A DNA stretch of 52,239 nucleotides from Girardia tigrina (Eukaryota). Every line of letters starts with the position of its first letter. Within the stretch, counting starts at the first letter, position 1. Made by a program: the position numbers and the translations under genes. Under the pieces are notes generated by a model. That model saw nothing but the letters and a program-made list of their open reading frames with translations, was not told where the DNA came from and did not search any database. Positions 5,142 through 52,239 of this stretch are shown here, piece by piece. The DNA lies in assembly GCA_001938485.1 (NCBI GenBank), contig MQRK01226661.1, positions 1 through 52,239 on the forward strand. The letters are read 5' to 3'.

Positions 5142-5715
5142 TCTTTAATCTCTCTCCTGGCCTTATCACCCTGCCGAATTTTGCCTCGATGTTACACACA
5201 CTTCCACGTGCTTCCCATGATACATTATTGACTTGAGATTCGTTCCTTTGTATGTAATAACCGAAAATTTTCATGAATACTATGCCTCCTATCAGTTCCG
5301 GAACCACACTATCCACAACAATAAATGGTACTGCTTTCCTTGTTTGACATATATCTTCTTCTACCTCTATTTTACCCAATACTTTCAATTTTCCATCGGT
5401 GGCACCTCTCAAATTGATATCGCATTTTTCTAACACCAAATTATTCAAATCTTGATAATACTTCTTACTCATAACATTAACACCTGCTCCTGTATCCAAC
5501 AAACACTCCCACTGTTTCCCCTGAATTTCCACTGTAACGCTCGGACGCCCCTGCATTTTACTATAACATATCTCTGATTTCTGATCCTCAATCAACGCGT
5601 TAACATAAAATACTTGCTCAAAATTCTTTTTCACAAATCCATAGACCTTATTCATCGTTCGCACATCCAGCTCGCATCCGAATCCGTGGGAATTATCTTC
5701 TAAGATCAGTGGCAT
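5122..5715 (-). CDS. Retroviral-type aspartic protease
   Basis: ECLLDTGAGVNVM and LIGGIVFM motifs. Confidence 0.85.
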   Translation of the reverse strand: MPLILEDNSHGFGCELDVRTMNKVYGFVKKNFEQVFYVNALIEDQKSEICYSKMQGRPSVTVEIQGKQWECLLDTGAGVNVMSKKYYQDLNNLVLEKCDINLRGATDGKLKVLGKIEVEEDICQTRKAVPFIVVDSVVPELIGGIVFMKIFGYYIQRNESQVNNVSWEARGSVCNIEAKFGRVIRPGERLKSVRLHR

Positions 5716-6795: not shown

Positions 6796-6972
6796 TCTAA
6801 ATCAAAACAAATTAAAAACTTGCAAAATTTATTAATCTACAACAGTTTAAATTTGTTATTTAAACAAATTTAATTTTTTTATTTTCTTTTTTTTATTTCT
6901 ATTTTCTATTATTTTTTTTAATTTCTATTATAATTCGAAATTTTTAAAAACCAAAATTCTTATTTCTGAAAA

Positions 6973-7900
6973 TTAAAAAATTAACAACAACACTCTCTTA
7001 CAATCTTTATCTGTGACATTAATATTTTCAATTTTGCAAAGGAACTTCATTCTTTTTGCTTCCAAGTGGCACTTCAAATGAAGATCGTTCAGTCTTTCAA
7101 TTTCTCTCACCAAAGCGACACCGCATACACTTTTAGTCAGCTCCTTCGGAATTCTCGTCATTACATCTGCTTTATTCAGCTTGCTCGGCACAAACTCTAT
7201 ACTAATAGTTAAATTAAAATCATTGCAAATTTCTTTAATAATAGATAACCGCCGTCTGATGAGCAATTCTGAAAAAGCACTCGTGTTTAGTCGAGACTTA
7301 CTTGTTAACACGTCATTCACCCAGGCAACCACAAATTTGTTATCACACTTCACTGTGATGTCTGTCATTCCCAATTTCACGCATAAATTCAACCCCCTAA
7401 CAACCGCTTCCAACTCCACTATATTGATGTGCCGTGAATCATCCTTTTTCCTTAACCAAGATCCATCCTCGATGATTTTACCATTAACTTCCAGCAAAAC
7501 CCCCAACGCGATTAAATTAGCATCGAACCACAGAGTACACGTTTTGCATTCTCCAATGCTCCAGATGCCTCGACAACGGTCATTTTCTGCAACTCTTTCC
7601 AAGATCCATTTCATCTTCTCCATCACCGACATGTCCACTGGTGAGTCCCAATCACCCTCCGATGCTCGTTTGAGATGAGAACATGCCAATCGTAACCATG
7701 ACGCCATAGGGTAGATGCCAGTAAGTTGTCCGCATAAAGAATAAAGCTCTTGCCGTGACATCGGTTCAGATAAATCTTCGACGCGAATCCGATTCGCTCG
7801 GTTCCACACCATGCTCCCGTTGATGTTGTTGACTTCCAATCCAAGCACTCTTACTTTTGTGTCACGATTAACACGCTCAGATTGTTTGCACTCTAACCCT
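6973..7900 (-). mobile_element. Gypsy-like pol fragment (RT C-terminus, RNase H, start of integrase zinc finger); same family as the 17-20 kb element
   Basis: SRQELYSLCGQLTGIYP, LWFDAN, IIEDGSWLRKKDDSRHINIVELEAV, NKADVMTR; homologous to ORFs 18330-18872 and 17186-18217. Confidence 0.85.
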
Positions 7901-7914
7901 GGATAATTCTATGC

Positions 7915-8073: not shown

Positions 8074-11000
8074 GTGTAAACAATATAAGAAATATAGGGA
8101 GGCGGAAACGACCACCCAATCTAGTGGTACCGGTAGAGGCCGAATGAAAAGAACCCCGGTAAAAACCATGACACGGTTCACCAGCCATACAAATTTATGT
8201 AGGACCAAACGGGTAATTTTGCCAACTGATAATAAAAATTAACTATTGTTATCAAATTTCATTGGTCCTGTACGCATAATATAAATACATAAAACATATC
8301 AGTTATAATTATCACCCGTTTTTTTATTAACAAAAATATATGTCTTCTAACAATTCCAAAGAGCGGAAATAATAAAAATAATATATTCATAAAATATTAT
8401 TTGATAATAATATTAATTAACTAAATAATAAATAATACCTATATTAATAAAAATAATATATTCTGTAATCTATGTTAATATATTTTATTTTATATAACGA
8501 AAGTAACATTGTAAATAATAAAATTTTTATAACTATTTTTGTTTAAAAGCAACAAATGTTGACAAATATTAAATAAAATCACCTTTTATGTTCTTTTTAA
8601 TTATGTTTGAATGATTTGGCTTTTATTATTATTTATTATAAAAGGAAAACATTTGCAGATGCGTGAAAGTCAAATGGTAAATATTATATTATTTATATTT
8701 TAGCAGTATTATTTTAGAATATTATTTTGAACACCGATTTGCATCATGCGTGACATGAGGGCTTTGAGGGCTGCACGAAACGATTTATCAAGAAATATTC
8801 TATATGAGCATATTATCATAATATATGACGTTTAAAAATAAATTGTGAAAAATGGCGTTCACTTTTTAATAACAAATTTTATTGGTAAAAATTAAAATGA
8901 TTATTAATTATTTAAAAATTATTTAATTATTAGTAAAATCATTTAAAATTTGCAATCATAATTAACTAAAAATAAATTCCAATATTAAATTTTAATTTTA
9001 ATTAAATTAATTTTAGATAACAAGAATTAAAGTACAAATCGGCTGTCTGAGTGGGAGTGACACACTGCCCAATCAAAACACAACATTCAAACACAAATCA
9101 TCAAACATTCTTCACCATTCCCAAATCTTTAAAATATTAAATTTTAAATCTTTTAAAATAATATCAATTATTTAGAACCTCAATAATTCAAAATCTTTAT
9201 ATTGCTTTTAAAAAAATTCATTTTAGAAATTATTATTTATTTCAATATTATTTATTTCAAAATTTAATTTTTCTTATAGAAAATTTATAATTAAAAATTA
9301 TTTAAATTTCGATCAGCAAAACGATAATTCACGAACTTCTTTTCAATTGTTTCCGAAAATTTACCGGAAAAGATCAATTTTCAATCAAGTCAATATATAA
9401 AGTCACTAAGGTCTTTTTACAATAAGTAAATTGGTGCAATTGAATTATGAACGGATCAAACATTCATCATTAACATTCTTCATCATCAATGAAGAATTTC
9501 TTTGGAAATTTCATAATTTTCGAATTATGAAAATTATTGAAATTATGATTAATTATCGAAAATTATGAGTAGATTTAAATTGTATTTAAATTGAATTTGT
9601 TTAACTGAATAAATATTAAAATAATCTGTTTCAAATTTCTGATCACAAATTATTATAAAAAAAAATTATCGGTGTTGCATAATAATGGATAACTTCGATT
9701 CATTTATTGAAATGGAATTCGTAGTACAATTTTCAACAAATGAAGTATTTCCGCTTGATTTAAATATATTTAAATACACTTCATTTATCAATAACTTCTA
9801 GAACTCGCCTTTCTCCAATTCTTCGAAGAATTTCCGGGCCAGGTCATTGTTCGGAACATCGAGATTCTTGGACTATGTTCCATCGTGTCGAAGGAACGAT
9901 TACATTGTGTGGAACATAAAGTGACCAGAGAGATCCGGGAGGAAAATGGTCCTTGGAAATTCAAAATAAACCGAAAGACATGAAAATGACGTTTGTTCAT
10001 TTGTTCTATCAGTTCTAACAATATACTTTGAGTAGATTTTCAATCAACGTTATCAAAACAGAGGGAACCAACAAACTGGATTTAGTAAAGCCTAAACCCC
10101 TTACAGATCTATTGCGAAAAATGATTAAGCCAGATTTTATCAATAATGTGACCGATATTATCATTATTCAACTGACGAAATATATGACGGTAAATTGATC
10201 AATCGTTTAATCTAAGATTCCAATGAATGCCTCACGATTTAGGGCTGTATGCACAGTTATAAAGAATTTCAGTTAGACCTCGGTAAAAGAAACAGAATCT
10301 TCCAACAATATTCCCAAGATTTGTTACTTACTGTCATTAATGGCTTCCAAAATTTCTATGTCCTCAAGCCACTAAACGCAAATGTCAGTGAATATTGATG
10401 TTAAGTGTTTTTTGATCATATAATTTACAGAAGCCACTCACTCCTACAAAACGGCGTAGGACTAGAAGTCAAGCAGAGATGGTTGAAACAAGTAAGGATA
10501 AAGTTTTGAACTTTATTCTACAGAGTCACCATCTCGGGAGAAGCTATCGACAATTAGAAGTAAGTTGATGTTTGCGATTTCAAGTATCAGTTTTTATTTT
10601 TTTAATTATTTACTACAAGTAATATAAAATAATTAGCTATTATAAAATATAAAATAATAGCCATTATAAAATAATAAATACTGATAATTGTTAATAATAA
10701 ATAATATAATTAAAAACCAATCAAACTGTGCATTGTCATAGTACATATTATAAACTATACAAATTATACGCCTGCAAAATTGAATTGAAACGAAAAATAT
10801 TTTAATTTCAAGCAGACTAAATATTGGAATGGCTATAATTTTCTTGAGGCAGAAAATCTTCTATGTCAATACACGATCGTTGTTGGAACAATTCTGCGCC
10901 ATGGTTTGAATGATCCTTATTAAGACTGCTTGCAAAATAACCCTACTGCATCATTTGGATGAAATACGCTTTCATCAAAGGATTTTTTTTCAGGTTTCGG

Positions 11001-11254
11001 AAAAGATTGTGATCAGGAGCTAAATATGGTCGTTGGTGTAGGAATTCTTATTTCGATTTTTGCCATGATCAAAATACTTTTTCGCTGTCATTTCTTGTAT
11101 TTATTATTTGTTTTCTTTTTTACATACTTGCTAAGACATTCGAATATATTGGACAATTATATTTCAATTTCCTATTATAACTTGTCAAACCCAAGAAACT
11201 AACTAAAAACTCCTTTCGATACAATCTTTACTGATTGCATATCAAAAAAACTAA

Positions 11255-11700
11255 AGTACATTCTTTATTCTTTGAAAATGTTTTTTCTTGTTTCATTGCT
11301 GTGTTTACATGGAGGACAGAATGTAAATATGTGGAGAAAATTTAGCTTCGCTTCACCATTCTGAATACCACGTTTTTCAGAAATAGATGTTAGTTGCTAA
11401 GATGTGCTTAAGATTTTATAAAAAAAAATAAAATAAAATTTTTGTCCAAATTTATAGCAAAAATTGTCATAGATTTAACAAATTGAAGTAAAATTCATGA
11501 GAAAATTATAATAATTATAAAAAGTTTATAAGATTAAACAAACTGACCTGGACAAGCTGTGTAACGGCATCATTATCGAGCATCTTGGACAACATGCTCA
11601 TTATACCCTTCAAAGATAATCCCGATACATCATGAAAATGAAACCAGCTGATCATTTCCAAATACGTTGTGTAGTAGAACCCTTCAGTTTTATTTCCAAA
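11255..11700 (-). other. Possible spliced host-gene fragment of unknown function
   Basis: Open exon ...FYYTTYLEMISWFHFHDVSGLSLKGIMSMLSKMLDNDAVTQLVQ, then a GTCAGT donor, an AT-rich intron, a TTAG acceptor and an in-frame exon QLTSISEKRG... Confidence 0.3.
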
Positions 11701-12599
11701 AAATTCAGGTAGGAAGTACAGTTTTTCATCATTAAATAATAACGGTTTCTGCCTGCATTATTCAACATATGAAAAACACTGATAATGATATTTCGATTTA
11801 CATTTCAATATATATCGATTCTTTGGGCAATTTGATGAGCCAAGATATGATAAATTCATGCGACACAAAATGAAAATTGTTAAAGCCAACCAAATAAATC
11901 TATTAGACGATTTACAGACGATAATTATTCATTTATAATTACTTTTTTGTCTTCTATTAATAGTTTTACGTCTTCCAAAAGTGAATATATTGTGATATTG
12001 GAGAATTTGACCTGTAATTTATAATTATAATGAGTCCATAAACAAATTATTTTGAATTATATGAATATAATCGGAAGGAATTCAATTTATTACTTGTTCG
12101 ACCTCGAATACAATCAATAATACCTCTAAAAATTCTATAGAAGGTGTAAAAATTATGTTTCATTAGAAATTGATTAGTTTCCAGTCTCCCTATTTCACTC
12201 ACCACAACAATTGAAGACATCTTCCATCTTTCACATAACTTACGATGACAGTATGAAAATTCATTAGAGCCACATGCAGTATTCAGAATAGTGAAGCGAA
12301 GCTAAATTTTCTCCACATATTTACATTCTGTCCTCCATGTAAACACAGCAAAGAAACAAGAAAAAACATTTTCAAAGAATAAAGAATGTACTTTAGTTTT
12401 TTTGATATGCAATCAGTAAAGATTGTATCGAAAGGAGGTTTTAGTTAGTTTCTTGGGTTTGACAAGTTATAATAGGAAATTTAAATATAATTGTCCAATA
12501 TATTCGAATGTCTTAGCAAGTATGTAAAAAAGAAAACAAATAATAAATACAAGAAATGACAGCGAAAAAGTACTGTGATCATGGCAAAATCGAAATAAG

Positions 12600-12810
12600 A
12601 ATTCCTACACCAACGACCATATTTAGCTCCTGATCACAATCTTTTCCGAAACCTGAAAAAAAATCCTTTGATGAAAGCGTATTTCATCCAAATGATGCAG
12701 TAGGGTTATTTTGCAAGCAGTCTTAATAAGGATCATTCAAACCATGGCGCAGAATTGTTCCAACAACGATCGTGTATTGACATAGAAGATTTTCTGCCTC
12801 AAGAAAATTA
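12600..12810 (+). mobile_element. Mariner transposase C-terminal relic (mirror copy at about 10835-11045 on the minus strand)
   Basis: PYLAPDHNLFRNLKK ... FHPNDAV ... YFAS ... RSCIDIE, similar to mariner PDLAPSDYHLF.NLKK ... RW.KCI. Confidence 0.6.
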
Positions 12811-14480
12811 TAGCCATTCCAATATTTAGTCTGCTTGAAATTAAAATATTTTTCGTTTCAATTCAATTTTGCAGGCGTATAATTTGTATAGTTTATAATA
12901 TGTACTATGACAATGCACAGTTTGATTGGTTTTTAATTATATTATTTATTATTAACAATTATCAGTATTTATTATTTTATAATGGCTATTATTTTATATT
13001 TTATAATAGCTAATTATTTTATATTACTTGTAGTAAATAATTAAAAAAATAAAAACTGATACTTGAAATCGCAAACATCAACTTACTTCTAATTGTCGAT
13101 AGCTTCTCCCGAGATGGTGACTCTGTAGAATAAAGTTCAAAACTTTATCCTTACTTGTTTCAACCATCTCTGCTTGACTTCTAGTCCTACGCCGTTTTGT
13201 AGGAGTGAGTGGCTTCTATAAATTATATGATTAAAAAACACTTAACATCAATATTCACTGACATTTGCGTTTAGTGGTTCGAGGGCATAGAAATTTTGGA
13301 AGCCATTAATGACAGTAAGTAACAAATCTTGGGAATATTGTTGGAAGATTCTGTTTCTTTTTCCGAGGTCTAACTGAAATTCTTTATAACTGTGCATACA
13401 GCCCTAAATTGTGAGGCATTCATTGGAATCTTAGATTAAACGATTGATCAATTTACCGTCATATATTTCGTCAGTTGAATAATGATAATATCGGTCACAT
13501 TATTGATAAAATATGGCTTAATCATTTTTCGTAATACATCTGTAAGGGGTTTAGGCTTTACTAAATCCAGTTTGTTGGTTCCCTCTGTTTTGATATCGTT
13601 GATTGAAAATCTACTCAAAGTATATTGTTAGAACTGATAGAACAAACATATTTTTTATTAATAATATTATTTAACTATTTTTAGTTATCATTTAGGAATT
13701 CAAATCTTTCGATTGATTTCGAATAACAGAAATGATAATAAAACCAAAATAACAAAGTTTTATTTTAATACAAGCAAGTTTTATTTCAAAATAATTTTTA
13801 AACGTAATTTTAATACTTCTACACTTAATTATCGCTTGATTTTCACAATATTTGTTCAATTTATTAATTTTTTTCGTACATCAGTAAAGTAAATGTTTTA
13901 AAATATTGTATTGTCATCGGAAGCAAGCCTGTATAAAAAATTCAGCTCAATTGGATGATTGAAAGTGGTCGAAAAATCAATCACAAGATTTGTTCCAGAC
14001 AGACAGACAAGAAACCAAGCTAAGAAAAACGTGGTAAAAACAATTGAAACTGAATGAATTGAATTGATGAATGAATTCATCAGATCTTGGCTCATAAAAT
14101 TGTCAACACAATCGACTTCTAAATAAATAAATATCGAAAATATTGCTGCAAAATTTTATCCTCTATTCTATTTTTCGATGACAAAAATTGTCGATAGCTC
14201 ACAATTTAATTACCTCTTATATTAAAAGAATTTTTTTAATTTAAAATTGTTTAACAAATTAAAAATTTAATAAATATTATAATATAATATATTATATTTA
14301 ATATATTTTATTTTAATAATAGTAATAAATAATTTTTATTTTGTTACTATTTAAAATTATTTTTATGAACGTCATAGTTTTTTGACAGAACCCATTGTTC
14401 CAAATCATTTTGTCATAAAAATTTCATATTATTTTTTTGTTTTCTTCTTTTTTAATATATGCAGAAAAAATTTTTCCTCA

Positions 14481-17185: not shown

Positions 17186-18217
17186 CTAATAAGAGTTTTG
17201 CTGCAGGTCTGGTTGTCTTGGTCGAATATCTGCTATATGCCGTAGACCGCAAAAACCATTACAATTTATTAAGTACTTTCTTTGATCCAATTTTCTAACG
17301 ACAACGCCTCTTCTCCATTGCTTTGTACATAGCATATTATTTTCAGACTTTACCCAGACTAACTGTTGCTCTATGAAGTCTGTCTTTTCCTTAATGTAAA
17401 CCGGCTCCTTTTCAATTCTTTCGATTATCTCCAAACTGACTGGAATGTACTTGTAAAGTGCTGAACCAGGTGTCTCGTTTCCGTCGGACGGTGTATTGTT
17501 ATACCACCATAAGGCTTCCATGATACTGATATTCGATCGAGACGCAATTCTCTTGATTGTCTTATGATTTCTCTCTATTATTCCGTTGCAATTTGGTCGA
17601 TTAATAGCGCGGTATANNNNNNNNNNNNNNNNNNNNNNNNNNNNNNNNNNNNNNNNNNNNNNNNNNNNNNNNNNNNNNNNNNNNNNNNNNNNNNNNNNNN
17701 NNNNNNNNNNNNNGCAGAACAAATTTGAAAACTCTGTAACAATCGACTTGACATCCTCAGCTTTGATTAGTTTCCATACTGCAAATCGAGAGGGTCCACA
17801 ATCAATGATACTTAAGAATTTTGGTTGATCAAATTTTGTGACATCCGCTGCAAGTCTTGTCCAGTTTTCATTGACAGTTAATTTTCCAGTTTCCCATTTT
17901 ATTGGTGCCGGATCAATAGATTGACAACTTTGACACTTCGAGATCAAATCCTTTATATCCGCATGTGACACATTTATTTCCAACTTATCGCACAGATATC
18001 GCATTCCCTTTGCACCTAAGTGACATCTGTCATGAAGTTTCTGTAGTTTGAATATGTCATCTATTACAGACAAAAGGCATCTGCTTCGTTTTAATTGTTT
18101 GGGTATTCTTGTCAGTTCATCAGCCTTATTGTCTTCACTATTAACAAACTCAATTTTCAAAGTTATTTCGTATTCCTGGCACAACTCCTTAATCATTGAC
18201 AATCGGCGCTTTATCAA
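17186..18217 (-). CDS. End of RNase H plus integrase (spans an N-gap)
   Basis: HHCC motif, DDE core and C-terminal GPY/F-like region (WRRGVV...RHIADIRP). Confidence 0.85.
   Translation of the reverse strand: MIKRRLSMIKELCQEYEITLKIEFVNSEDNKADELTRIPKQLKRSRCLLSVIDDIFKLQKLHDRCHLGAKGMRYLCDKLEINVSHADIKDLISKCQSCQSIDPAPIKWETGKLTVNENWTRLAADVTKFDQPKFLSIIDCGPSRFAVWKLIKAEDVKSIVTEFSNLFCXXXXXXXXXXXXXXXXXXXXXXXXXXXXXXXXXYRAINRPNCNGIIERNHKTIKRIASRSNISIMEALWWYNNTPSDGNETPGSALYKYIPVSLEIIERIEKEPVYIKEKTDFIEQQLVWVKSENNMLCTKQWRRGVVVRKLDQRKYLINCNGFCGLRHIADIRPRQPDLQQNSY
17617..17713. other. Assembly gap (N run)
   Basis: Run of n. Confidence 1.
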
Positions 18218-18361
18218 AAGCTCGAAAAAGGCTTTCGTGTGAAATTTATTTCGCTCTGATAGTGCCTCAGTTATCCAAGAAACAACTGATTTGTTATCTG
18301 ATTTTACTACAACATTCGTTAGTCCCCATTTAATACACAGATTTAGACCCTTTACAACTGC

Positions 18362-18400
18362 NNNNNNNNNNNNNNNNNNNNNNNNNNNNNNNNNNNNNNN
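18362..18400. other. Assembly gap (N run)
   Basis: Run of n. Confidence 1.
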
Positions 18401-19862
18401 TTTTCCTTAACCACGATGCGTCTTCTATAATATTTCCTTTAACTTCCAATGCTGCCCCAATGGCTATCGAACTGGCATCACACCATATGATGCCGTCTTT
18501 ACAATCATCAATACTCCATTTTTCTCTACAAGGATCTTCCTCCTTAACTTTTTTCAAAACAAATTTGATTTTCTCGAATAATTCGACATCTATTTTCACA
18601 TCCCATTTTCCTTCACTGAGCCTTTTCATGTAGGAGCATGATGGACGTAGCCAACCTGCAACAGGGTGGATTCCTACTAATTGGCCACACAGCGAATATA
18701 ACTCGCGACGCGATATTGATTCGGCAACTATCTCGTCCATGAAATGATTATCTCTCATCCATCTCACCGAATTCTTATCCTTAAAGACTTTAACTCCCAA
18801 CACTCGCACCTCTTTATCCATTGAGAGATTTTCTGGTTTTTTACATTTAAGACTAAATTTCTCGAACAGCATTCTAATTTCGTCAACTGTGATTGTAGAT
18901 CAGTTGTAGATTGTGCTCTAGGATCAGAATTTAAAATCCACTTGACAATTTCAGTCATAATGGTCGGAGCGATATTTAAACCAAAGCCCATCCTGGTTAG
19001 AGCGTACTTTTTTTCCATTAATGACACGTGATTGATAACGCCACATTTCCTTGTGAACGCGAATCTGCATATACGCCTCTGATAAATCAAGCATGGAAAA
19101 TTTTGATCCTTTTCGCCGCCAGGTGCGAAGTTTTTCCAAACATATATCTGCTGAGCCACTGTACACGTCTACATAATTGTTTAATTTCTTAAAATCAAAG
19201 ATCGGTCTTATCTTTGATTTGTTAACTTGCAATATTCCAAATATGGCTATAGATCCTATCGATTTACCCATTTCCTGCTCGTCATAATCCATTAAATAAC
19301 CCTTCTTCATGCACTCCTCAAGGATTTTCATTGTAGCTATGTCTTTCGATTTGTCATCCTTAAAGATCGAATGTCGAATTGGTAGATAAATAGGCTATTC
19401 ATCTTTCCACTTTCATTTAACCGTCCAATTATCCTTAAATTCAATCTCATAATTGTGTTTGTCCAGGCTAACTCTTGCACAACACCCGTGACACAACTCA
19501 TATTGTCACCAGCCTTCTTTAGTCCTTCTCCTACACACACACCAAATTCGATAACACCCTTATTAATTTTCACACCCCCAAGTTCACTTATAACATCCAT
19601 ACCAATTAAAATTCCCAAATTAAGTATTTCATGACAGCACATTCTACTTTCATATTTCTATTGTCTATAGTCAATTCACATCACTAATCCCCACACATAT
19701 ATCATCGCCATTAGTCAAAACAATTCTTTGCTCATTTGACTGTAACAAGTTTCCCTTGATCAACCCTTTCAAAACAGCAGCTTTTGAGCAACCCGAATCT
19801 ATCAACGCTGTAACCGACTTTTTGTTAACAATGACAGTCATGGTTGGCAGCGCCGGAAATGT

Positions 19863-19907
19863 CAGAGGGAGAGAGCCGGCGCCTACAAACTCCCCTGTCC
19901 GTTTCCC
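19863..19907 (-). promoter_or_regulatory. -1 frameshift signal (G GGA AAC plus stem-loop) between gag and protease
   Basis: GGGAAAC at 19901-19907 in gag frame (S-G-N). The -1 frame reads VGKRTGEF into LIDSGC. Downstream stem caggggag/ctccctctg. Confidence 0.8.
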
Positions 19908-20401
19908 GACTTGCAATATTTTGCAATATGTCCAACTTGCTTACATTTATAGCAAATTATTTGTCCATTAGATTGCCGCTGAGAATTTTCATAACGGTTT
20001 ACCCTTGTTTGTACCAGATTTCCGTCATGTGGCATACGGGGTTTTGTAAAGGAACTCCTTCTACCACCACTGACCTCACCTCGTTCTTTAGAAACGATCT
20101 TGCCATCACCAACGTTTTGTACCACTGACATTGAACTTTGTGTGACGCATTTTTTAATTCCTAAATACCTGCGACTATATTCAACCATTTCGGTTAAATC
20201 TTGATCGCCGGCCTGCTCTAAATTCAATTGCAACTCGAACGGCAATCCAGCCATAAAGGCCGCCTTGGTCAGATCGTCGATTTTTGATGCCAACATCTTT
20301 ACTTGAGAAACGTAATCGTCAATAGTTTGTCCTTCGTAATATTTCAAATTAATCAGTTGACTGTATGCAGATCGTCTGGTTAATCCGAATGAATTGTCCA
20401 A
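19883..20401 (-). CDS. gag: Gag C-terminal part with CCHC knuckle
   Basis: AFMAGLP and CYKCKQVGHIAKYC. Confidence 0.85.
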   Translation of the reverse strand: MDNSFGLTRRSAYSQLINLKYYEGQTIDDYVSQVKMLASKIDDLTKAAFMAGLPFELQLNLEQAGDQDLTEMVEYSRRYLGIKKCVTQSSMSVVQNVGDGKIVSKERGEVSGGRRSSFTKPRMPHDGNLVQTRVNRYENSQRQSNGQIICYKCKQVGHIAKYCKSGNGQGSL

Positions 20402-20499
20402 GATTTACAGTACTTCTTCACAGTTGCTCTGTTTCTTTTCATCCAATTCCATGTATATATTTAACGGAACATCAGTGAACAAAAAAGGAAGATATGGGG

Positions 20500-21385
20500 C
20501 CGGATCCAAAAACATCATTGTCTTCTGTCATCACTGTCGCTAAATTGTCGTTGGTTGTAAACGTTTCCTCGGTAATTATTATTTACCATCCTTTGCTGGT
20601 CAAGCCTTTTATACAATCTAATCATCATTATGTCCTCTACTTTGACACATTTTTCAAAAAATGTTCGGACAGATTTTTCATACATAATCTTGCTGTCAAC
20701 AACCATTACATCTGGTTAGTTTTCTTTTCGCACAGTCTCGTATAAAGTAACCCTCTTTTCCACATCCGAAACATCTTCTTGGTTCTCGTTGTATATTCAG
20801 CTCCTCTGTATCACTTTTCCAGTTTTGACTTCTGTCCACTTTATCAGGAATATATCTGTTGGTATGTGCGCCACCAACTCTTATTGGATGTTGTTATCAG
20901 TTACATCTTCTTTATAACTTGTAGTTCCACTGCTCATTCTGTAATCTCTTACTGTGTTTATCTATTTTACCACATTTTTAACATCGTGTACAGTTTTAAT
21001 CTGCTCTTTTATTTCCTTAACTCTCTTTATCGATGTCATCACAATAGTTCATAAATAATCTTTCCATTATATTCTCTTTTGGTATACTATGCTGCATGAT
21101 TCTTTCTGCGAACTTTTCCATTTCGTAATACCGTCCTTCATTCTATACCGGCACGCTTCTGACCAATCCTCAAATTGGGAGGATGTCTGCTCAAAGGCTT
21201 TTTGTAATCGGTTTTTAAAATCTGTTACAGACTTGTTCACGGCCCTAAACTTTTCTTTCGCGTCTCTGTCCAACAGACATAAGGCAATGATCTCCTGGTT
21301 CTGCTTTGTAACTCCCGCCAATTGGAAGAACGTTTCACATTCCACTATGAACGTTTTCACATTGTCACCTTTCTTGAATTTTTAG
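20500..21385 (-). mobile_element. Gag fragment related to the 5.7-6.8 kb Gypsy gag
   Basis: FIVECETFFQLAGV...FKNRLQKAFEQ...EDW aligns with FISCCRRYFEAAEI...FEDQLRLAFEK...TDW; degenerate knuckle CFGCGKEGYFIRDC near 20730-20775. Confidence 0.75.
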
Positions 21386-41443: not shown

Positions 41444-41979
41444 ATATTTTTTATTATTTATCCTTTTAACCATCACTCTAGGACCATTATTAGTCGGTTA
41501 CTTCAGTAATTAGAAAAAAAAATAATTATATTTTTAAATAACTCTTATTACATAAATTAGTAAATCAAAAAAAATTATATCCATGATTTATTCGGACAGA
41601 ACTCAACTTGGTCAACAGAATTTTTTGTTATCTTTTGTAGAAGTTAAAATTGCAATTACATTTTTGTAAATAAATTTATAATTTTATTAGTAATTATTTA
41701 AATCTTTTGTATAAAGGAAAATTTCATACAAAACTTTTTACAACTCCATTTTGCAATTAAATAGTGACTGTTAGGATTTGGCCGACATTAAACTAAATCG
41801 TCCGATCAACTAAGTGAAGCGACTAGTGTTATATGACTAGATAAAAATTGCGGTAATTAAACTTCTCTCGCAATAAATGTGTTTGGCTAAAGAGCACTTT
41901 TATTAACTAAATTAACCAAAGGCAGTAATCCACTTTGATGAACCTATTTATTTAGCCAATAATAATTAAATAACTGATT

Positions 41980-43300
41980 AGTAGGGGGGAAATGTATGTT
42001 CTTCCCACATCACCCCCCCGGGGGTAGCCCGTTGCCATGACAACTTTACCGGTTACCATAGCAACGCTCGCGGTTACCTTAGCAACGGTCGTGATCACTC
42101 TAGCAACGATTCCGATTGGTCCCCGGTACATTGGAAACACTTCTGATTGGTTCCCGGGTCCCTAGCAACGGTTTCGGTTCTCATAGCAACGGTAACCAAG
42201 GACGTTTTTCATTAGCAACGGATACAGTGATTCAAGGCGGTTGTAACCATGGTAACGGTTACCGTATCCATAGCAACCATGACCCTTTCCTTAGCAACCG
42301 AAGAAAAAAGTGCTAATCGATCACTACATAGTGCCCAGATGTGCTAATCCATAGTGCACATTGTGCCGCACATTTCTAATGTGCTAGCACAGTGCTTTTT
42401 AAGTTGCACATGTGCAAAAGTGCAAAAGTCAATACATCAAATTTTTTTAAAAGTACTAGTGTCAAAAATCGATATCATGTGTTTGATGCACATTTTAATT
42501 CTTTATCTGAATGTGCAATTAGAAATTTCATATATTGATTAGGTTTTCCTATAATTAGCATAATGTGCAAATTTGCACAAAATGCACATTGATTTTAAAG
42601 ACAGAAGAAAGTAGAATATCAAAAAAGTGTTGATGCACTTGAATAGAAATCCATATACGTACATTTAGATTCCATGTCAACATTTTCAAAACAGTGCTGA
42701 TAAATTGATTTTTTCGAACATTTCTGAAATTCTTAAAAAAGTGCTCAAAAATCTATTTTTTCGTACATATCTGAAACCTATATGATATATGTATGTTATT
42801 AACCATCATATAATACTTCATGAATTGCTCAATGTACCTTATCATCAATCACAAATACCATCGAACATTTCTGAAATTCTTAAAAAAGTGCTCAAAAATC
42901 AATTTTTCGTATATATCTGAAACCCTTATGATATATGTATGTTGTTTACCATCAAACAATACCTCATGAATCTCCTAATATACACAAGTAAAATCACAAG
43001 TACCATGGTTATCGTAACCAAGAAACATAACATTTTATTTTACATGTAAAATCTACATGTATAAAACTCCTGTTGTACTTAAAACGTGCATAGACATTAT
43101 ACATACCACCTACACAATCACCAAAAGTACCTGAGCCTAGGCATCAACCATCAAAAGTATCTAGGTTACCGTAACCATGATACATAACCTTTTAAGATTA
43201 TATATAAAAACAATCGAAAACACCTTAGAAACCATCACTGTTATCTTTAAACTATGAAAAACACCTTAAAAATCATCGAAAACTACACAGTGCCCAGATT
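41980..43300 (+). mobile_element. Putative Polinton/Maverick-like terminal region
   Basis: Abrupt start AGTAGGGGGGAAATG followed by a C7G5 palindrome, shared with 52176. Internal ~110-bp tandem duplication (42714 and 42861). pPolB lies downstream. Confidence 0.5.
42031..42298. promoter_or_regulatory. Cluster of RFX X-box-like motifs plus two inverted CCAAT boxes
   Basis: GTTGCCATGACAAC, GTTACCATAGCAAC, GTTACCTTAGCAAC, GTAACCATGGTAAC, GTATCCATAGCAAC; TAGCAAC occurs 8 times; GATTGG twice. Confidence 0.7.
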
Positions 43301-43738
43301 CTTCAAATAAAGAACTAAGGTTGGAATTTGAATTGCTAATTCTCTAAATATAGTCGATAAAAATCATGTCAATATGTATTACACTTTCCTGACTAGCCTA
43401 GGCTAGTCCTGGCTATCTTAGGATAGGCTAGAGTACTCCGCTGTATTCTTTCTCAATGGAAAATGTTGAATAATGTGCTGTAAAGAGCATAGGTTAACCC
43501 TTGATCCATCCAGTTTACCTACCATATCATCAATATTAGTATACAATCATTTGAAGCCATAAATGATTATGGTCAACATATTAATACTATGGATATATAT
43601 GAATATGAGCGATATATGGTATGTTATGTAATAGAAAGATGAACAATTGCTCAATTATTCAACCTTTTCGTTGACTGTTATGCTTTATGTTATGTATATC
43701 AATATATGACTAGAGGAAATTATACTATAAGACATGTA

Positions 43739-44045
43739 TTACATATTTCTTCTCATTGAAAAAATGCATATATTACATGATTTTGTATTAATCGCTTGTA
43801 CAGTCGCTTGTATTAATCTGAATTGTGTCTTGTCTTCCATATATTGATATAAATGTGGTTGGAGTTCTAGATCTATCGGTAAGTTGTATTCTCGTCCGAA
43901 CATAGCTTTGTAGGGTGATATTTCCGTCGCTTCATGAGGAGTCGCTCGTATTGCCATCATTATTAAATTTAACATGACATCCCAGTTCGTCGTATATCTA
44001 TTCGTATAGCATGATAATATGCTTAGTCTGTCGCAAAAGTCCTCA
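43739..44045 (-). pseudogene. Gypsy-type integrase C-terminal core fragment
   Basis: EDFCDRLSI/LSCYTNRYTTNWDVMLNLIMMAIRATPHEATEISPYKAMFGREYNLPIDL. Confidence 0.85.
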
Positions 44046-44178
44046 GGTGGCCTTCAAAAACACACTAATATTTTACCAAATTTAACCAAATTTGGACTGA
44101 ATATTATTCAGACTTTCATAAGTACTGTGTTAAAATTTCACACCATAAAATTAAAAAAAAGTAAAATTTTGTTTTATT

Positions 44179-45200
44179 GGAGCAGGTCATGTTTATCGGT
44201 ACGATTTCTACTGGTAATATTAATCTTGTTACTGGCTGTAAATATCTTGTTGCATTGTTATGTCGTACTGGCAGTTCTTTATAACATATCCCTCTCATAG
44301 GCTGCATCTCGACGTCCACCTGGACACATTGATAAACGTACATTACTTCACCGAGGATTCTTCCAAATTGTCCTGTAGGTAGCGGTAGTAATGGGACTAG
44401 TGAGTCCGTATTTACTGTAGCAACACCCAACTTTAGCCTCAGTATTTTTTTGTTTAATTTACAGTCATTTGTCACCATGTCGAGGTATATTTTCTCCATT
44501 TTTTATTCTTGTCTATTGAATAGAAACGCCAATTTATTGTTCACATAAGCCTCTCATTTCATGTCCGTAGGTTCCACTCTAGTCCTTGTCACTCTTGTTT
44601 TGCTTAAATAAAAGCCTTTGTAGTTTGTTGCAAACATTTTCGTGTTGCATCTTGAGACGGTTTCCTTTTTAATGAATTCTATACCAACCTTTTCATTCCT
44701 TGAAATGACTGCTATTGGTGTATCTTCTAAATCTAACTGAACTTTGGCTTGGGCTTCATCTTTTAACAGGCATGTCATGTACTAATCTCGCTCCTCCTTG
44801 CTGAATCGGTTTGCCAGGATATTTATCGAAATAACCTTCCTTTAAAAATGTCAACTGACATCGTTCATGGAGTAGATTGTAGGCTAGCGTCGATAATCCG
44901 GCATCACAATATCTCTCTTTTATTTTACAATTCAACCACTGTTTCACGCAACCAGAACTGGTATCGTACCAACCGTCATACTCTTTTAATTCTAGCTCAT
45001 ACATGTCTCGCACCATCACATTGTGTCTATCTCCCAATTTTCCGCCTTGACTTGATTCGTCGGTCATAGTAAATGCTCCTGTGTCTAATGACGAATATTA
45101 TTGTTTATCAATTTTCATATTGTCGCAGTTCCAACCGAGTATAGCGTGGCTCATTGGAATTTGTGTTAGGAACACTAGTAATATGATGATCAATTGTAAG
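44179..45200 (-). pseudogene. env: Chuvirus-like (class III, gB-type) envelope glycoprotein, fragmented and C-terminally truncated
   Basis: Signal peptide LIIILLVFLTQIPMSHA|ILGWNCD; CNTKMFATNYKGFYL; AYVNNKLAFL; IYLDMVTNDC; LGEVMYVYQCVQVDVEMQPMRGICYKELPVRHNNATRYLQPVTRLIL, matching the chuviral GEVxYxxxCxxVxV...CYxELPV...FLxPxTRIL pattern. Confidence 0.8.
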
Positions 45201-46222
45201 GCTTTTTGAACTTGTGGTAGTCTTTGTGTGGTTCTTGTTCGTATCAATTTTTAACATAATTCCTTCATCTGTTCAATTGTCGTTTCTTGTAGTACTTCGA
45301 AATCATCACTTTCTTGTTGTAATCCGTCTTCAATGAAACTGTCCCATCCTCCTAAGTCTTGTTTACTCGGTTCGATATGTTTCTTGACTATTTCTGTTAG
45401 AGCTTTTATTAGTTTCTCACATTTTTGGCAGTCCTGGTCGAGTTTATTGGCATAGAATGATATTACACATGCTAGTGCAACTTGTAGTCTCAGTTTTCTT
45501 TTCCTTTTGCTAAATAATTCTTCACCGCGTTCTCTACGTCCTTAAGCGTCCGATTTTTGATTTTTCTATCGACTTCTCTGATTATTGCCGTTAATACTTC
45601 ATTTATAGGGTAACTTTTCGACGGTAATTTGATTGTTCTGACGTTCCATGTTTGTCCCGTCACCCATCTCATATATATAGTCTTACTTCATCGGCCAATA
45701 TCATCTCAGTCATGTCATTTCCTATCGGCACGTCGGTACACTGATTTCTCAGTATTTTCAATCCTTCCAGTGATCTCTGTTTCGGCGTTAATCTCGAAAC
45801 AGTTTGTCCAGATGTACCTGGTACATTATCAACATTTATCGCATTCTTTTTGCTTTTAATTTGCGCTGGTTTCCATGATTTTGTCGTTTGTGCTCCTTGT
45901 TCCGTTGTCTCCAGGTGATTACCTGTTTTTCGATCTGCATACTAATCCATGTAGGTTTGTTTCAATATTGGTCTTGTTGGTTCGATAACTGGGAGGTTTG
46001 ATATTATTTCTTGCAATGAATCGTCTATATCCACTCCGAATGGTCTGACTGGCCTTTGATAGGTTTTCCCTGTTGACGACTGTGAACTGATTGAGAGGTT
46101 CGTATCTTTGCTCTACACGATATATGGTAACTGCCCAACGGTCGGTTATATTTTTGGTGTCTCATCCCAGTTTTGAACCCGAAGGCGCTCACTGTATTTT
46201 TAATTTTACCTTTAGGATTCAC
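45201..46222 (-). pseudogene. Broken ~330-aa leader ORF of unknown function, running into the glycoprotein frame
   Basis: Near-continuous coding frame with a few stops and frameshifts; the last segment (RLQVALACVISF...QKALQLIIILL) is in frame with the signal peptide. Confidence 0.45.
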
Positions 46223-46342
46223 ACTTAATATTTACATTTATCCCCTTATCCAAGCATTATTTCTCATTTAAAGATTATATACATACATACTTTTATTACC
46301 ATAAAACATTTATTATACATATATCATACTTCTATTATACAT

Positions 46343-46672
46343 CTATACAACACTTTCTAAATAGTCTTTTATCTCTATATTTTCTTTATTTTCGGCATCC
46401 AAGGCCTTTCGATAGGCAGTTATTCGCTTCTTTAATCTCTCTATTTTGGTTCTCTTCCTTCTGATTTTCGCATTGATTTCATGTATACGATTTTTGATTT
46501 CGTCCACTACTTCTGAGGTTGTTTCTTCCCAGTAATAGGTATCGTCTAATCTTTCATATACGTTTTTCATACTTTCCAATTTATTCAAATATCTTTTCTC
46601 CAATATGCGAAGGTCTATCAAAACTCCGACTTTATTTTCTACTCTATCCAATATACTTTCCAATATCCTCAA
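46343..46672 (-). CDS. Basic, coiled-coil-like hypothetical protein; first ORF after the PBS
   Basis: 109-aa ORF with heptad-like IKNRIHEINAKIRRKRTKIERLKKRI. Confidence 0.45.
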   Translation of the reverse strand: MRILESILDRVENKVGVLIDLRILEKRYLNKLESMKNVYERLDDTYYWEETTSEVVDEIKNRIHEINAKIRRKRTKIERLKKRITAYRKALDAENKENIEIKDYLESVV

Positions 46673-47403
46673 GGTAAGATGTCTTGGTATTTCTCGGTCA
46701 TTGTCTCTCGTTTGTTTGTGTTTCTACAGTCAATATTTCTTCTATTATTCCTGCATTTGAGGTTCCGGTCTCTCATGGTCATTAATTATACTGAAAATAT
46801 TATCCATTAAATCATTTTCATTTATCAATTCTCATCATTTATTTCATCATTATTTATATCTTTTCTATTTCTCATATTTCTCATATTTCATCAATCAATT
46901 ATTTATCTCCATTATCGCTTCATTTTCATTTTAATATTCTTCTGATTTTATCAATTACATATCACTTATCGTTAATCTCTTTCTCATTTCGTTTTTAACA
47001 TATATTTCATTTCTTTATCATCCGAAGTCGATTTTTCTTTTTAATTCAAATACATTGTACTCCATTTTTTCTATCTTTATCGTTGTGCGCCATTATTTTT
47101 GTCCTTGTAATCTAATGTCTTTCATAAAATTCACAAATTTCTGTCTCGATTGGAGTTCATAAATCTACAATATCAATTATAACATAAATTCATTAAATTT
47201 TCAAATATTTATCTGTTCAAATCATTATTAATATACACATTAAAAACTCCATTAAACTTCATCATCCCGGGGATAGTATTATTATTTCATATTTTCCGTC
47301 CCAGCTCAAGGCGTTTCATTGTGAACCATTTATTCTAAATCGTAACATCGATCCTCAAAATCTCTTTCCTTTAATCATGGATCGAAGGCAAACACGTGAT
47401 TCC

Positions 47404-47419
47404 TCCTGATCACGGACCA
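47404..47419 (-). promoter_or_regulatory. Putative primer-binding site, tRNA-His-like
   Basis: TGGTCCGTGATCAGGA versus the His-type PBS TGGTGCCGTGACCAGGA (one deletion, one mismatch). Confidence 0.55.
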
Positions 47420-47420
47420 A

Positions 47421-47845
47421 ATTTTTCTCTCAGTTCACGGAAGTTTCAGTTCTCTGGGTGGGAGGATTCATTTGCCGGCTAAATATATTATCGTCTTCTC
47501 CTCACCTACTAACCTTCACCCAGCCGCGATGCTCAAAAGCACGTCTTTACCTCCGCGAGGTTTATTGGCTACAACAATCTTTAGAGAGGCTGCTTCCTCT
47601 GGTCCCTATATATGCGCCCGTTGTTAACGAACACTCACCTCGGTTTTCTTTAGGTGTTTTCTCACCCCTTTTGATTACGGTGTCTAGTCACCGGGCACTC
47701 ACTGGCCATGTTTAATGGTCACATAGGGTGTTGCCGCTGAGATCGACTCTCGTGAGCAGTCCTTTCCGCTTGATTCCGTACTCACTCAATCCTCAGTTCA
47801 TCAGGGAGTACGTGTCCACTGATCGAGCAGGGCTCGACACGGATC
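47421..47845 (-). repeat. Putative 5' LTR (upstream-truncated)
   Basis: GC-richer non-coding block. On the minus strand: TATATA near 47610, then AATAAA at 47561-47566, then the PBS. Confidence 0.5.
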
Positions 47846-47858
47846 TTTAGAAGATTGA

Positions 47859-49570
47859 GTGTCTTCGAGGTCAAAAGAAAATTTCCATCGTGCACGAACT
47901 GTTCTGGATAACGAATTCTTTAATATATTAACAAATTCAAATATTTCCTCGGAAGAATATAAAGTTTCACAAAAAAATTGGATCGATTTAGGATGTAATA
48001 ATATAAAAGATTACGTCTCACAATACATGAAAACGGATGTATTGTTACTAGTAGAATTTTTTGAAAATCTAAGAAAAAAAATGTCTAGAATACTATGAAA
48101 TAGATTCATGTCACTGTTTTTCAGCACCAGGATTAACATGGCAAGCTGGAAGGAAATTTACTGGTCAAAAACTCAAATATTTTAAAGGAGAAACATATGA
48201 TATGCTTCTCTTTCTTGAAGCAGGAGTAATATGAGTTGCAACCGTATTGAGAAATAGATATATTGTTCCTCGTAATAAACATACTGAAGAAGATATCAAT
48301 AAAAATATTAGAATAACAGAATATGAATTTGATCTTATGTTAGAAGACTTTGAAAGATCAAAAGATAAAGCGAATTATGATTTTGATAAATTCTTCAGGG
48401 AAAATTATATTGTTTATTTTGATACAAACTCCTTATATTTTTCATCAATGTGTAAATTTTTACCAAAAGGAGAAATGGAATGGTGCGAAGATTTAACATA
48501 GGAAAAATCAATCAGGTTATGTATTTGAAGTTGATCTTGAATACCCTGATGAAATTAAGAAATATCATTTTATTATCCATTTTTCTCGAAAGATTAGTTC
48601 CTGATACTTCCTTTAAAGAGTTATCATCTTACGAAAAAATCTGTTTATACTGGGAGAAAGGATAAAACTGAAAAACCTGTGCAGACATATCTTGATAAAA
48701 ATAAATATATTGTTGAGGGGAAAACATTAGATTTTTATCTAAATGAAGAAATGATCTTGAAAAAAACCCATAGAAAATTAGTATATAAAAAATCTCCTTG
48801 GCTTAAACCATATATTGAATTTAATATTAAAAAACGAAAAGAAGCGAAACAAAAAGGAGATTCATTTGGGGATTTCTTTTTCAAATTATTATATAACGTA
48901 TTCTATGGTAAAACCCTAGAAAATATTAGAAATCACTCTAACATTAAAATAGTAAATAATGGAAAAACATTTGAAAAACTAGCTGGGAAACCAGAATATA
49001 AATCAATAACTCCCTTTAATAACAAACTTTGTGCTCTGGAAATGAGAAAAACTTCAATAAAATTTAATAAATTTAATTATATAGGGTTAACTGTTTTACA
49101 ACTCTCAAAATGTTTAATGTTTGAATTCGCATACAAGGGATTACATAGAACATGGGACTTTGAGTCTGGAAATATATTACTTCAGTATACTGATACAGAC
49201 TCTTTCTTTGTTCAAATATATGATAATTTTGAAAATATTTATGATAAACTAAATAATTGGTTACATCCAACTGAAAAAATTATTGAAGAAATGGTGAATA
49301 TTAAATCCAAAGATTATAGTTTTAAACATATTTTACTTGATAAAAATCTAAAGGGGAAACTTGTAGAAACAGGGGATTAAAGGATGTAATTTTTGCAAAT
49401 AGAGTTAATATTTTATTTAATAATGATTTAATCTTGAAAGAAGAAAAACATATTGTTTCTAAAAACCATGAAATAAATATAGTATCAAGAACTAAACAGG
49501 CATCCTTAGGATATGATAATAAAAGAAGAAGATATCCTCTAAATAACATTATGTCTTTCCCCATAGGTTT
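47859..49570 (+). pseudogene. Protein-primed family B DNA polymerase (Polinton/Maverick/adintovirus type), frameshifted
   Basis: YMKTDVLLL, FSAPGLTW, YFDTNSLY (motif A), FEVDLEYP, FFKLLYNVFYGK (motif B), YTDTDSFF (motif C). Confidence 0.92.
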
Positions 49571-51792
49571 TAATAAAGAAGAATTGACCTCCAAATATAT
49601 TTTATTTTAAAAAATGACTTGTGAAAATTCAAAAAAAAATTTTACTCTTAAAAAATATAATAAAGTATATAATAACGTTATTTTTTTAAATACGCAGCAA
49701 ATATTAGAAGATTTTAATAATGATTATGAAGATAGTGATTTTGAAAATAATTATGAAAGTAAGAGTTATAATATCAATGATAATATTGAAAGTGAAAGTT
49801 ATAATATAAATCAAAATGAATTTAATTTTCATTATGAAGGTATAGTTTATGCTAATACTCTTATTTATAGTGATTATTTTTTTTATCTTAACAATTGATT
49901 TTAATTTAGATTAAAAATATTAACCATACTTCCGTATGGCTTTTTCGTATCCGATTTTTTCGATTCCCATTTCCATTTTCTTTATTAAAAATATGAATTT
50001 TGAAAATTTTTGATAATAAATCTAGATTTTTTGATACTAAATCGATAATTTCTGTTGAATTTTGACTAATTTCTAATATTTTTAATAGAAAATCGATCAA
50101 AATTATTGATTTATTGCTATTTTCAAAAAGCCTCAAAAAGGCCCTTTTTGAAGGGTATGGGGTATTACCCCCATAATTACATTACTTCTGGGCTTTTATT
50201 TACTATATAATAAAATGCCTAACAAATAACTATTTGAAAACTTTACTTAACTTTTATTCATAATGTTTAAAAATTTTCCTTTCATAAATTATTTATGATA
50301 ACAATTATTATAACTGGAATTATTTGGATTGTAACATTTCATAAAAGTTAATTTATGATTTTCTTACAATTTTGAAGTAATTAAGTTTGTTGAAGGATTT
50401 ATTGTTGGTCAATTCGATGGAATAGATTAGCAAAAAAATCAAGACATGAAAGTATACCCAATTAAAGTATTTTTACTATTTTGTACCTTCTCTTCATATA
50501 CTGATTCAGTTTCATTTTTAGCTCAACTTTCGAAAGATTTAAAAGATTCCCAAACTCTTAATTACTTGCAAATATATTTGAATATAAAGGTAATCAAAAT
50601 TTATTTAAGATAAAAATTTACATTCGAAACAATAACAACAGTTGAATCTTTTCAGATTTATTTTTGTCCACAAGGTATAAGATTTCATCATGACCATAAA
50701 TCACATTGAAATCTGGAGTTATTTTTATTTTTGTTGCTATCCTCCTTGTGCCCATAATTGTTTCAATAATGTTAAACAGACCTATATTAAAGCCGGTAAT
50801 ATTGTCTTTGTGAATTTATCTCAGTTCTACTTCTAATTAAGCAAAAAATCTGGTCTTATCATATTTATAATTTCGTCTCATTTATTCAAGTAATTAAATA
50901 ATAGTCGCAATTTAATTTTAAAAGCATAAAAACGCCATTTATAAAAATTATATTTTCAAGGACAATTAAATTCGACGGTTTAACCATCATCGTCAGGTAA
51001 TCAAGAAAGTATGAATTTTATATCTGCTTATATAGGCAAGCAGTAATTATGCAACCAATTATAATAATTATGTCATCTAAACGTACTCAATAAAGTTTTC
51101 TTATGATCTTAAGACCTGAAATATAGTGCTTCACAAAAAAATGCTCCCGATAATTATTAAAACGAACACATTTAATTTTTAAATTATTTATATTTATGTT
51201 TACATTTGAATTAACAAAATTTATGTGTCGAACACTTTTACATCCACGCTTAAATTATGAAAATGCTCTTAAATTCTTTTACAGGGAGGACGAAACATCT
51301 CTCCAATGATTATGATATTAAACCCATTACATATAAATTGATATACGCGATTCGAATACAATCCAAGGGGGTTGGAGATTTATTGCACAATATATTTTTG
51401 ATTTTTTAAGTTTACTATTATTCTTAAAAATTAAAAGAATTATTTATACATTTTTAAATTGAACGTTTATGTGTGAATGTCTGATGATTCTGAAATTTGT
51501 GCATTGATTTGGGATTACGAGTGTCCAACCCAGATGACAGATTAATATTTTAATTCTTAATAACTGAAGCTACTTTAATTTAATTTAAGCTTAATGTTTT
51601 AAATAGTTTGAATAATTTATGTTTATTTTTTAGATATATAAATCAATTTAATATTTGTTTTAATATTCAAGTATCGAATTGTGATTAAAATAATTTGAAA
51701 ATAGTACAAACCTTCCAAAGTTTTTAAAGTTCAATTCCAATTAAAGTCCAGGGGATAAATCAACTTATAATATTAGGTCGTCCAGGATGATA

Positions 51793-52170
51793 TTAGTGGG
51801 AATAAAGTCAACTTTTATTGATAATTTATCAATACAAATATTTATGTCATTCATCAAAGTATTCACCCATATTATCGACCCACTTTGCCACTTGACCGGG
51901 AGATTTTTGAAGCTATTTGAATAAAAATTTAGTGGGCGAGAATCTATAAATTTCTAGAAAGTCATTTTTACTACACCTTCGGAATTGATTTTTTTTCCTA
52001 TCAAAAAGTTGTTCAAATTGAGGAAGAAATGGTTGTCAGTTTGAGAATGAAGGACTATACAGAAGTTTCAACTCAAGTTTCGGTAGTTTAGTTACAGTCT
52101 TAAATGCAGTATGTTGTTGTTGAATCTGATTTCCGGAGACTGAGCTTGAGCACCTTCAAGCCAATAGGAA
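51793..52170 (-). mobile_element. Mariner 3' fragment with TIR, cut off by the element starting at 52176
   Basis: HFFLNLNNFLIGKK...FIDSRPLNFYSNSFKNLPVKWQ/WVDNMGEYFDE*; TIR ends ...tttattcccactaa followed by TA. Confidence 0.75.
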
Positions 52171-52175
52171 TGCAC

Positions 52176-52239
52176 AGTAGGGGAAAAATGGGGATTCTCC
52201 CTCAGACCCCCCCCCCGGGGGGGGTCGTTACTAGTTACC
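52176..52239 (+). mobile_element. Second putative Polinton-like terminus, running off the window
   Basis: AGTAGGGGAAAAATG...C-run/G-run palindrome...GTTACTAGTTACC, the same architecture as at 41980. Confidence 0.5.

Follow-up and report, generated by a model that had tools for sequence, protein, structure and literature searches.

A comparison of the 52,239-nt contig MQRK01226661.1 from the Girardia tigrina assembly GCA_001938485.1 with related loci in the same genome reveals that its positions 41980 to 50186 hold three broken pieces from three transposon families: an end of a family-B Polinton, a deleted Burro-like gypsy retroelement that owns a gB-type envelope gene (env), and, from a family-A Polinton, the right end with part of the pPolB gene. 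These pieces have very probably been brought together by chance insertions followed by deletions, and the locus is likely to be ordinary transposon debris rather than a Polinton that gained a fusion protein. The entire contig (C226661; other contigs are named in the same manner) is referred to as the window. A sequence-only reading of the region had pointed to the three parts within 8 kb and had weighed a retroelement nested in a dead Polinton against a Polinton stably linked to a fusogen.

The assembly comprises 1.43 Gb of AT-rich DNA in 255,254 contigs, and the genome searches scored 40 to 150 top candidates per query. A first look across the genome yields 6950 candidates for the terminal inverted repeat (TIR) of family B (40 scored), 2257 for env, 3568 for family-A pPolB and 6735 for family-B pPolB. 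Because thousands of candidates exist for every part, proximity within 8 kb is not strong evidence; gB-type env and pPolB, with thousands of copies each, can adjoin by accident, which makes proximity alone a false lead. The region contains the following features:

41980..43286, plus strand: family-B Polinton TIR, one copy, approximately 1.3 kb, left flank CTGATT
43296..43800, strand not given: high-copy repeat of approximately 500 bp that partly matches the interior of the family-B element
43807..44026, minus strand: C-terminal fragment of the integrase core, 88% amino acid identity to the C249044 copy
44019..44178, strand not given: unrelated 160-bp repeat at the site of a deletion of approximately 4.1 kb
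44176..45208, minus strand: broken gB-type (class III) env, PF24664 (viral fusion glycoprotein), E 5e-19
45209..46088, minus strand: fragment of the long Gag-Env insert of the polyprotein, 55-60% amino acid identity
46343..47909, minus strand: pieces of the retroelement's long 5' leader and the region upstream
47908..49604, plus strand: C-terminal part of a family-A Polinton pPolB, approximately residues 790-1408 of 1408 (C-terminal ~45%)
49880..50186, minus strand: right TIR of a family-A Polinton, AGTAATG inward from 50186, outer plus-strand flank TCTGGG
52176..52239, plus strand: first 64 bases of another family-B TIR, cut off by the contig end, AGTAG start, flank ATGCAC

The env-bearing retroelement

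Positions 43807-47909 on the minus strand show collinear matches, at 68-87% at the nucleotide level, to an env-bearing Ty3/gypsy family. The gB-type glycoprotein that the sequence-only reading had recognized is present, and the integrase that it had called Gypsy-like is a fragment of the retroelement's own. The copy is incomplete: approximately 4.1 kb is missing between env and the integrase, comprising the rest of env with its transmembrane segment, the protease (PR), dUTPase, reverse transcriptase (RT) and RNase H (RH), and a further loss of approximately 6.6 kb, between 46035 and 46378, has taken Gag with it. The remaining env is spread over several frames, contains stops and an internal deletion, and ends short of the hydrophobic/transmembrane segment. 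The window copy is an internal, heavily deleted remnant, and its env cannot make a membrane-anchored fusogen.

The long terminal repeat (LTR) and primer-binding site (PBS) that had been read into the sequence were not recovered. The LTR of the family gives no blastn hit in the window, two patterns for the PBS and LTR end give 0 matches there with up to 3 mismatches allowed, and ARAGORN detects no tRNA in the window. The GC-richer segment at 47421-47909 instead matches the long 5' leader of a relative (C243278), at a distance of approximately 2.8 kb inward from its 5' LTR end. No LTRs, PBS or target-site duplication (TSD) of the errantivirus copy were found at the locus. The idea of a retroelement nested in a dead Polinton therefore stands in one part, since env and integrase are owned by a Gypsy element, and falls in another: the flanks come from two Polinton families (B on the left, A on the right), and, with LTR and PBS absent, the insertion is not a cleanly nested one.

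The better-preserved relatives show what has been lost. In C249044, a single 4142-aa open reading frame (ORF) holds Gag, env and Pol in frame, in the order Ty3 capsid, CCHC, ubiquitin-like, PF24664, protease, dUTPase, RT, RNase H and integrase (IN), with an insert of approximately 1600 aa, bearing a weak ubiquitin-like match, between the CCHC knuckle and PF24664. The ubiquitin matches (E 0.002 and 7e-5) and the dUTPase match (E 0.002) lie below the Pfam cut-offs. The same domain order is present in C246636, and its Env-PR-RT(-RH-IN) part in C242717 and C241284. In the last of these, two LTRs that are 98-100% identical over their readable parts lie approximately 28 kb apart, which gives the element a size of at least 28 kb. 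The LTRs of the family end in GTCGTGACA, and behind the 5' LTRs stands a TGGGGGCTC motif, a putative tRNA-Pro primer-binding site. Among the sister copies, the features that define an errantivirus are thus found, namely Gag, a gB-type Env, the PR-RT-RH-IN order, an LTR pair and a PBS. Several env subfamilies coexist, with approximately 94-99%, 58% and 30% amino acid identity to the env of C249044.

A search for homologs of env returned four unnamed proteins, all with PF24664. The ectodomain of one better-preserved relative was modelled from a 16-sequence alignment (mean pLDDT 57). In a Foldseek comparison of this model with the PDB, herpesvirus gB ranks at the top (E 4e-12, with TM-scores of approximately 0.2), and among viral models chuvirus-like glycoproteins match best (E 5e-28). 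These two matches support the label "gB-type", and a gB-like fold is predicted for the better-preserved relative. In light of this fold and of the literature, the env of intact copies would be cut out of the Gag-Env-Pol polyprotein and may serve as the class III membrane fusogen of retroviral-like particles.

Downstream of pol, C249044 (4549-8064 of the examined stretch) additionally contains a conserved ORF of approximately 1170 aa. Its product has strongly hydrophobic segments, matches no Pfam family and is a candidate accessory membrane protein.

Two Polinton families at the flanks

The terminus at 41980, which begins with AGTAGGGGGG and had been noticed for its AGTAG start, is a high-copy repeat and a true Polinton-type end, because sister copies have both TIRs together with 6-bp target duplications. 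One copy (C249606, 762-8631 of the examined stretch) has both TIRs and the TSD TCCAAT and encloses a pPolB that shares only 22-38% identity with that of family A; another (C185736) measures 2.5 kb, is a non-coding derivative and has AATATT as its TSD. The sampled copies are either TIR-pPolB-TIR elements of approximately 8 kb with TIRs of approximately 1.3 kb or shorter non-coding derivatives. Only pPolB markers, and no integrase or capsid genes, were found between the TIRs of C249606, and the same holds for what could be read of C248193 and C246379. With TIRs and a 6-bp TSD but neither integrase nor capsid, family B is best called a Polinton derivative; it looks like a capsid-less, integrase-less TIR-pPolB-TIR element that exists at thousands of candidates.

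No opposite-orientation partner for the 41980 TIR is present in the window, and a self-comparison of 41900-52239 with the window by blast recovers nothing beyond a tandem repeat inside the TIR. The second family-B TIR, which starts 64 bases before the contig end, has the same orientation as the first and a different flank. The adjoining repeat at 43296-43800 has 39 other top genomic matches, which end short of the integrase fragment.

Two further observations concern family-B TIRs. Many GTTRCCATRGCAAC-like palindromes occur at 42030-42310 of the window; they presumably resemble RFX X-boxes. In C226016 (1100-8600 of the examined stretch), capsid and integrase genes of family A have a family-B TIR as their immediate neighbour, either through Polinton-in-Polinton nesting or as a chimeric element.

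The pPolB fragment that the sequence-only reading had reported is also present, broken by stops and frameshifts, and belongs to the other family: it is 61% identical to family-A pPolB and 39-40% identical to family-B pieces. The assignment as pPolB is based on polymerase motifs in the sequence and on the best database relatives of family-A pPolB, which bear PF03175; sequence searches of Pfam, PHROGs and the PDB gave no direct identification of pPolB and returned only Endonuclease_7, in two copies. The portion at 47908-50186 represents only the right 2.3 kb of a family-A element. Family-A capsid, ATPase and integrase markers give no match in the window, and nothing of the left part of the family is present there.

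Complete family-A elements are approximately 17-18 kb long, with TIRs starting AGT, a 6-bp TSD and pPolB as the last gene. C169815 is complete, with both TIRs starting AGTAAT and the TSD CCCGGT, and C170560 is near-complete; both carry an A32 ATPase, a PLA2-like protein, an rve integrase and a double jelly-roll (DJR) capsid by Pfam, and no env. The family-A labels "protease" and "minor capsid" are read from position and size, with no profile hit. The sister copies thereby provide the features that define a Polinton (pPolB, rve integrase, A32 ATPase, DJR capsid, TIRs and TSD), which agree with those published for Polintons/Mavericks (PMC6431247). At family-A right ends, the flank is CCCGGG or CCCGGT in 4 of the 7 other ends with a visible terminus region, a count in which the terminus of C231503 was not found and two others have a different end. 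Together with the TSD of C169815, these flanks suggest a target-site preference in an AT-rich genome.

The two ends in the window do not bound one element. The right TIR at 50186 does not match the 41980 TIR (no significant similarity, best E 0.19), the flanks differ (CTGATT at 41980, TCTGGG at 50186) and form no 6-bp TSD, and no capsid, ATPase or protease genes lie between the termini. The parts by which a single Polinton might have been recognized according to the sequence-only reading are therefore missing.

Env and Polinton DNA across the genome

The association was examined at 34 other Polinton contigs, of which 8 were chosen by family-A pPolB, 18 by the family-B TIR and 8 by family-B pPolB. 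Many of these stretches are partial, with 1.4-39 kb of readable bases, and env is found by tblastn at 0/34. A six-frame profile search with 19 natural env segments hits the window itself and again none of the 34 loci. The hit lists of env and of family-A pPolB, family-B pPolB and capsid have no contig in common (148 versus 146; 200 versus 69 and 125), a comparison of low power. Gypsy Gag/Pol, on the other hand, accompanies env at 30 of 35 loci (14/15 close, 16/20 divergent), and the four divergent loci that lack it show no Polinton hit either. Polintons without the glycoprotein, and a glycoprotein kept to LTR contexts, had been named as the pattern that speaks against stable linkage, and within the sample that pattern prevails.

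A decayed Polinton that had stably captured a gB-type env would resemble the Mavericks of nematodes. According to two reports, these elements carry MFUS-1, a gB-like fusogen that is a conserved stand-alone core gene with a signal peptide and a transmembrane segment, lies inside TIR-bounded elements with capsids, and has a median identity of 85% among C. briggsae Polintons (10.1101/2022.07.12.499685; 10.1101/2023.08.22.554363). The locus shares with them a gB-like class III env, its fold being predicted for the family, near pPolB and Polinton termini, all within 8 kb. The env of the window is, unlike MFUS-1, a broken part of a retroelement polyprotein; it keeps its retroelement neighbours in the original order, with the insert upstream and the integrase downstream. 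It also lacks its transmembrane segment, stands between ends of different families with different flanks and no capsid, ATPase or protease genes, and is absent from all 34 sampled Polinton loci. A captured env is thus extremely unlikely, and this explanation is already largely refuted in the sample. A second, non-nematode fusogen-bearing Polinton would bear on movement between species; the locus does not supply one.

At the env loci near Polinton DNA, the partner gene, the family and the orientation vary from locus to locus, as expected of independent nesting. One such locus is C253317 (3055-8041 of the examined stretch), a second pile of env near pPolB that combines an env from a divergent subfamily with a pPolB of family B and an LTR end abutting the latter. 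In C186903 (2141-2488 and 1499 of two examined stretches), nesting has gone in both directions: the 3' LTR of one retroelement copy adjoins a capsid gene of family A, and a family-B TIR starts in its 5' leader.

The retroelement family might instead prefer Polinton DNA, such that piles of env next to pPolB exceed chance and the locus is one of them. A precedent exists in the type 1 Ngaro elements, 91% of which are reported to lie inside EMALE virophages (PMC8547959); the present retroelement is likewise found in a Polinton-related DNA element, but it is a Gypsy rather than a tyrosine-recombinase element. LTR U5 ends were used to measure such a preference. Of 51 listed, 44 have a usable outer flank and 7 were dropped (4 followed by a PBS, 1 followed by the internal leader, 1 without a flank and 1 with an unreadable flank). 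Five of the 44 directly abut Polinton DNA, in C186903 (family-A capsid), C253317 (family-B pPolB), C203138 (family-A pPolB) and C226439 and C243102 (both family-B terminal/subterminal). The control consists of 20 evenly numbered contigs, of which the first 10 kb or less were used, and 3.6% of its 113,412 readable bases are Polinton-like, which gives a binomial p of 0.02.

This excess is sensitive to how it is measured. The Polinton-like bases of the control come mostly from one stretch (3590 of 4128), p rises to 0.12 at a background of 6%, and the set chosen by LTR search alone places 3/37 LTR ends in Polinton DNA (p 0.15). The control is drawn from genomic stretches alone, and repeats in general are apt to gather where DNA is already rich in them. 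Additionally, 39 of the 44 LTR ends lie outside Polinton DNA, compared with the 91% targeting of type 1 Ngaro. The enrichment is a suggestive, weak lead and is not decisive, and a preference of this kind is unlikely to account for the locus. It is likewise improbable that Polinton DNA is a homing target of a giant Burro-like errantivirus, which would repeatedly leave its env beside pPolB and inside Polinton ends, possibly along with a rare env-bearing Polinton subfamily. If such homing were true, the genome would offer a natural record of how Polintons come to capture a fusogen, stage by stage. As it stands, the data hint, in a way that can be tested, at insertions of the retroelement into Polinton DNA that are somewhat more frequent than expected.

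The junctions could also be an assembly artefact in which a highly fragmented assembly has joined three repeats, all of them high-copy. The junction between the leader and pPolB at 47908/47909 is sharp, with an overlap of approximately 2 bases, and is spanned by 0/39 other scored matches (299 candidates). Short microhomology is, however, also typical of real deletions. No contig bridging 47908 is listed in two public DNA runs, a result that is uninformative either way, and no RNA run is listed among the public runs with matching sequence. The same runs, which belong to one study and one of which may be the window's own source, contain near-identical contig pieces for 44.3-47.4 and 48.5-50.4 kb, which indicates that degraded pieces like those of the locus are real. 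An artefact is thus very unlikely, and the conclusion on the ownership of env would be the same either way.

Chance insertion followed by deletion remains the very probable explanation of the three pieces. In the most economical order, the retroelement would first have landed within a family-A Polinton or next to one; its 5' leader would then have become fused to the middle of pPolB at 47908 by a deletion in which the 5' LTR and the remainder of the family-A element were lost; and a family-B element would have inserted on the other side and been truncated itself. Several points weigh against this explanation. Both ends of the retroelement, from which the order of events might have been read, are gone. 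Polinton DNA lies near 3/15 close and 3/20 divergent env loci, and the excess of LTR ends that abut Polinton DNA points in the same direction. Tens of copies were sampled from families with thousands, with top candidates scored and many of the 34 stretches partial, and a rare env-bearing Polinton may exist elsewhere.

Related elements and further features of the window

The retroelement family closely resembles Burro, the giant gypsy-like LTR elements of planarians, in which gag and pol enclose an in-frame env and which also have a ubiquitin-like domain and a dUTPase placed between PR and RT (PMC6431247). The size of at least 28 kb, the one huge ORF, Gag, CCHC, the ubiquitin-like domain, env and the placement of dUTPase are shared, as is the relationship of env to mononegavirus glycoproteins. 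The differences are that the ORF has 4142 aa compared with 4873/5140 aa in Burro, that the ORF of approximately 1170 aa follows downstream, and that the copy in the window is a fossil with large deletions. A Pfam search at E<=0.01 of the Gag-Env insert of four copies finds none of the MATH, BIR, ankyrin or BCL2 domains. Because this cargo was not found, the family is termed Burro-like and is not filed as Burro1-4; the likeness is one of layout and domains.

The family also agrees in its Ty3/gypsy Pol, gB-type env and Gag-Env-Pol order with errantiviruses of Platyhelminthes, Nematoda and Bryozoa, which have a GAG-ENV-POL order and an HSV/gB-type env (PMC13524379). The env of Smed_errantivirus_1 looks homologous by eye to the env of the present family (PMC13524379). 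The family is a Burro-like GAG-ENV-POL errantivirus whose layout is already in print. A literature search at listing level, incomplete for subscription papers, returned neither a fusogen-bearing Polinton outside nematodes nor a description of a polymerase-only planarian Polinton. Two by-products of the analysis are of some small value in themselves: a Burro-like family with an open Gag-Env-Pol frame and a high-copy, polymerase-only Polinton derivative.

Elsewhere in the window, two more retroelement remnants, unrelated to the env-bearing family, lie on the minus strand at 3393-7908 and 17186-21381. They contain Gag-PR-RT-RH and a DUF7047/RNase H-like ORF and belong to the Gypsy-type and other transposon remnants at 3-8 and 17-22 kb. 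A near-perfect large inverted repeat is located at 10000-13646, with arms of approximately 1370 bp that are 98-99% identical and a spacer of 910 bp; it is likely a young foldback or TIR element.

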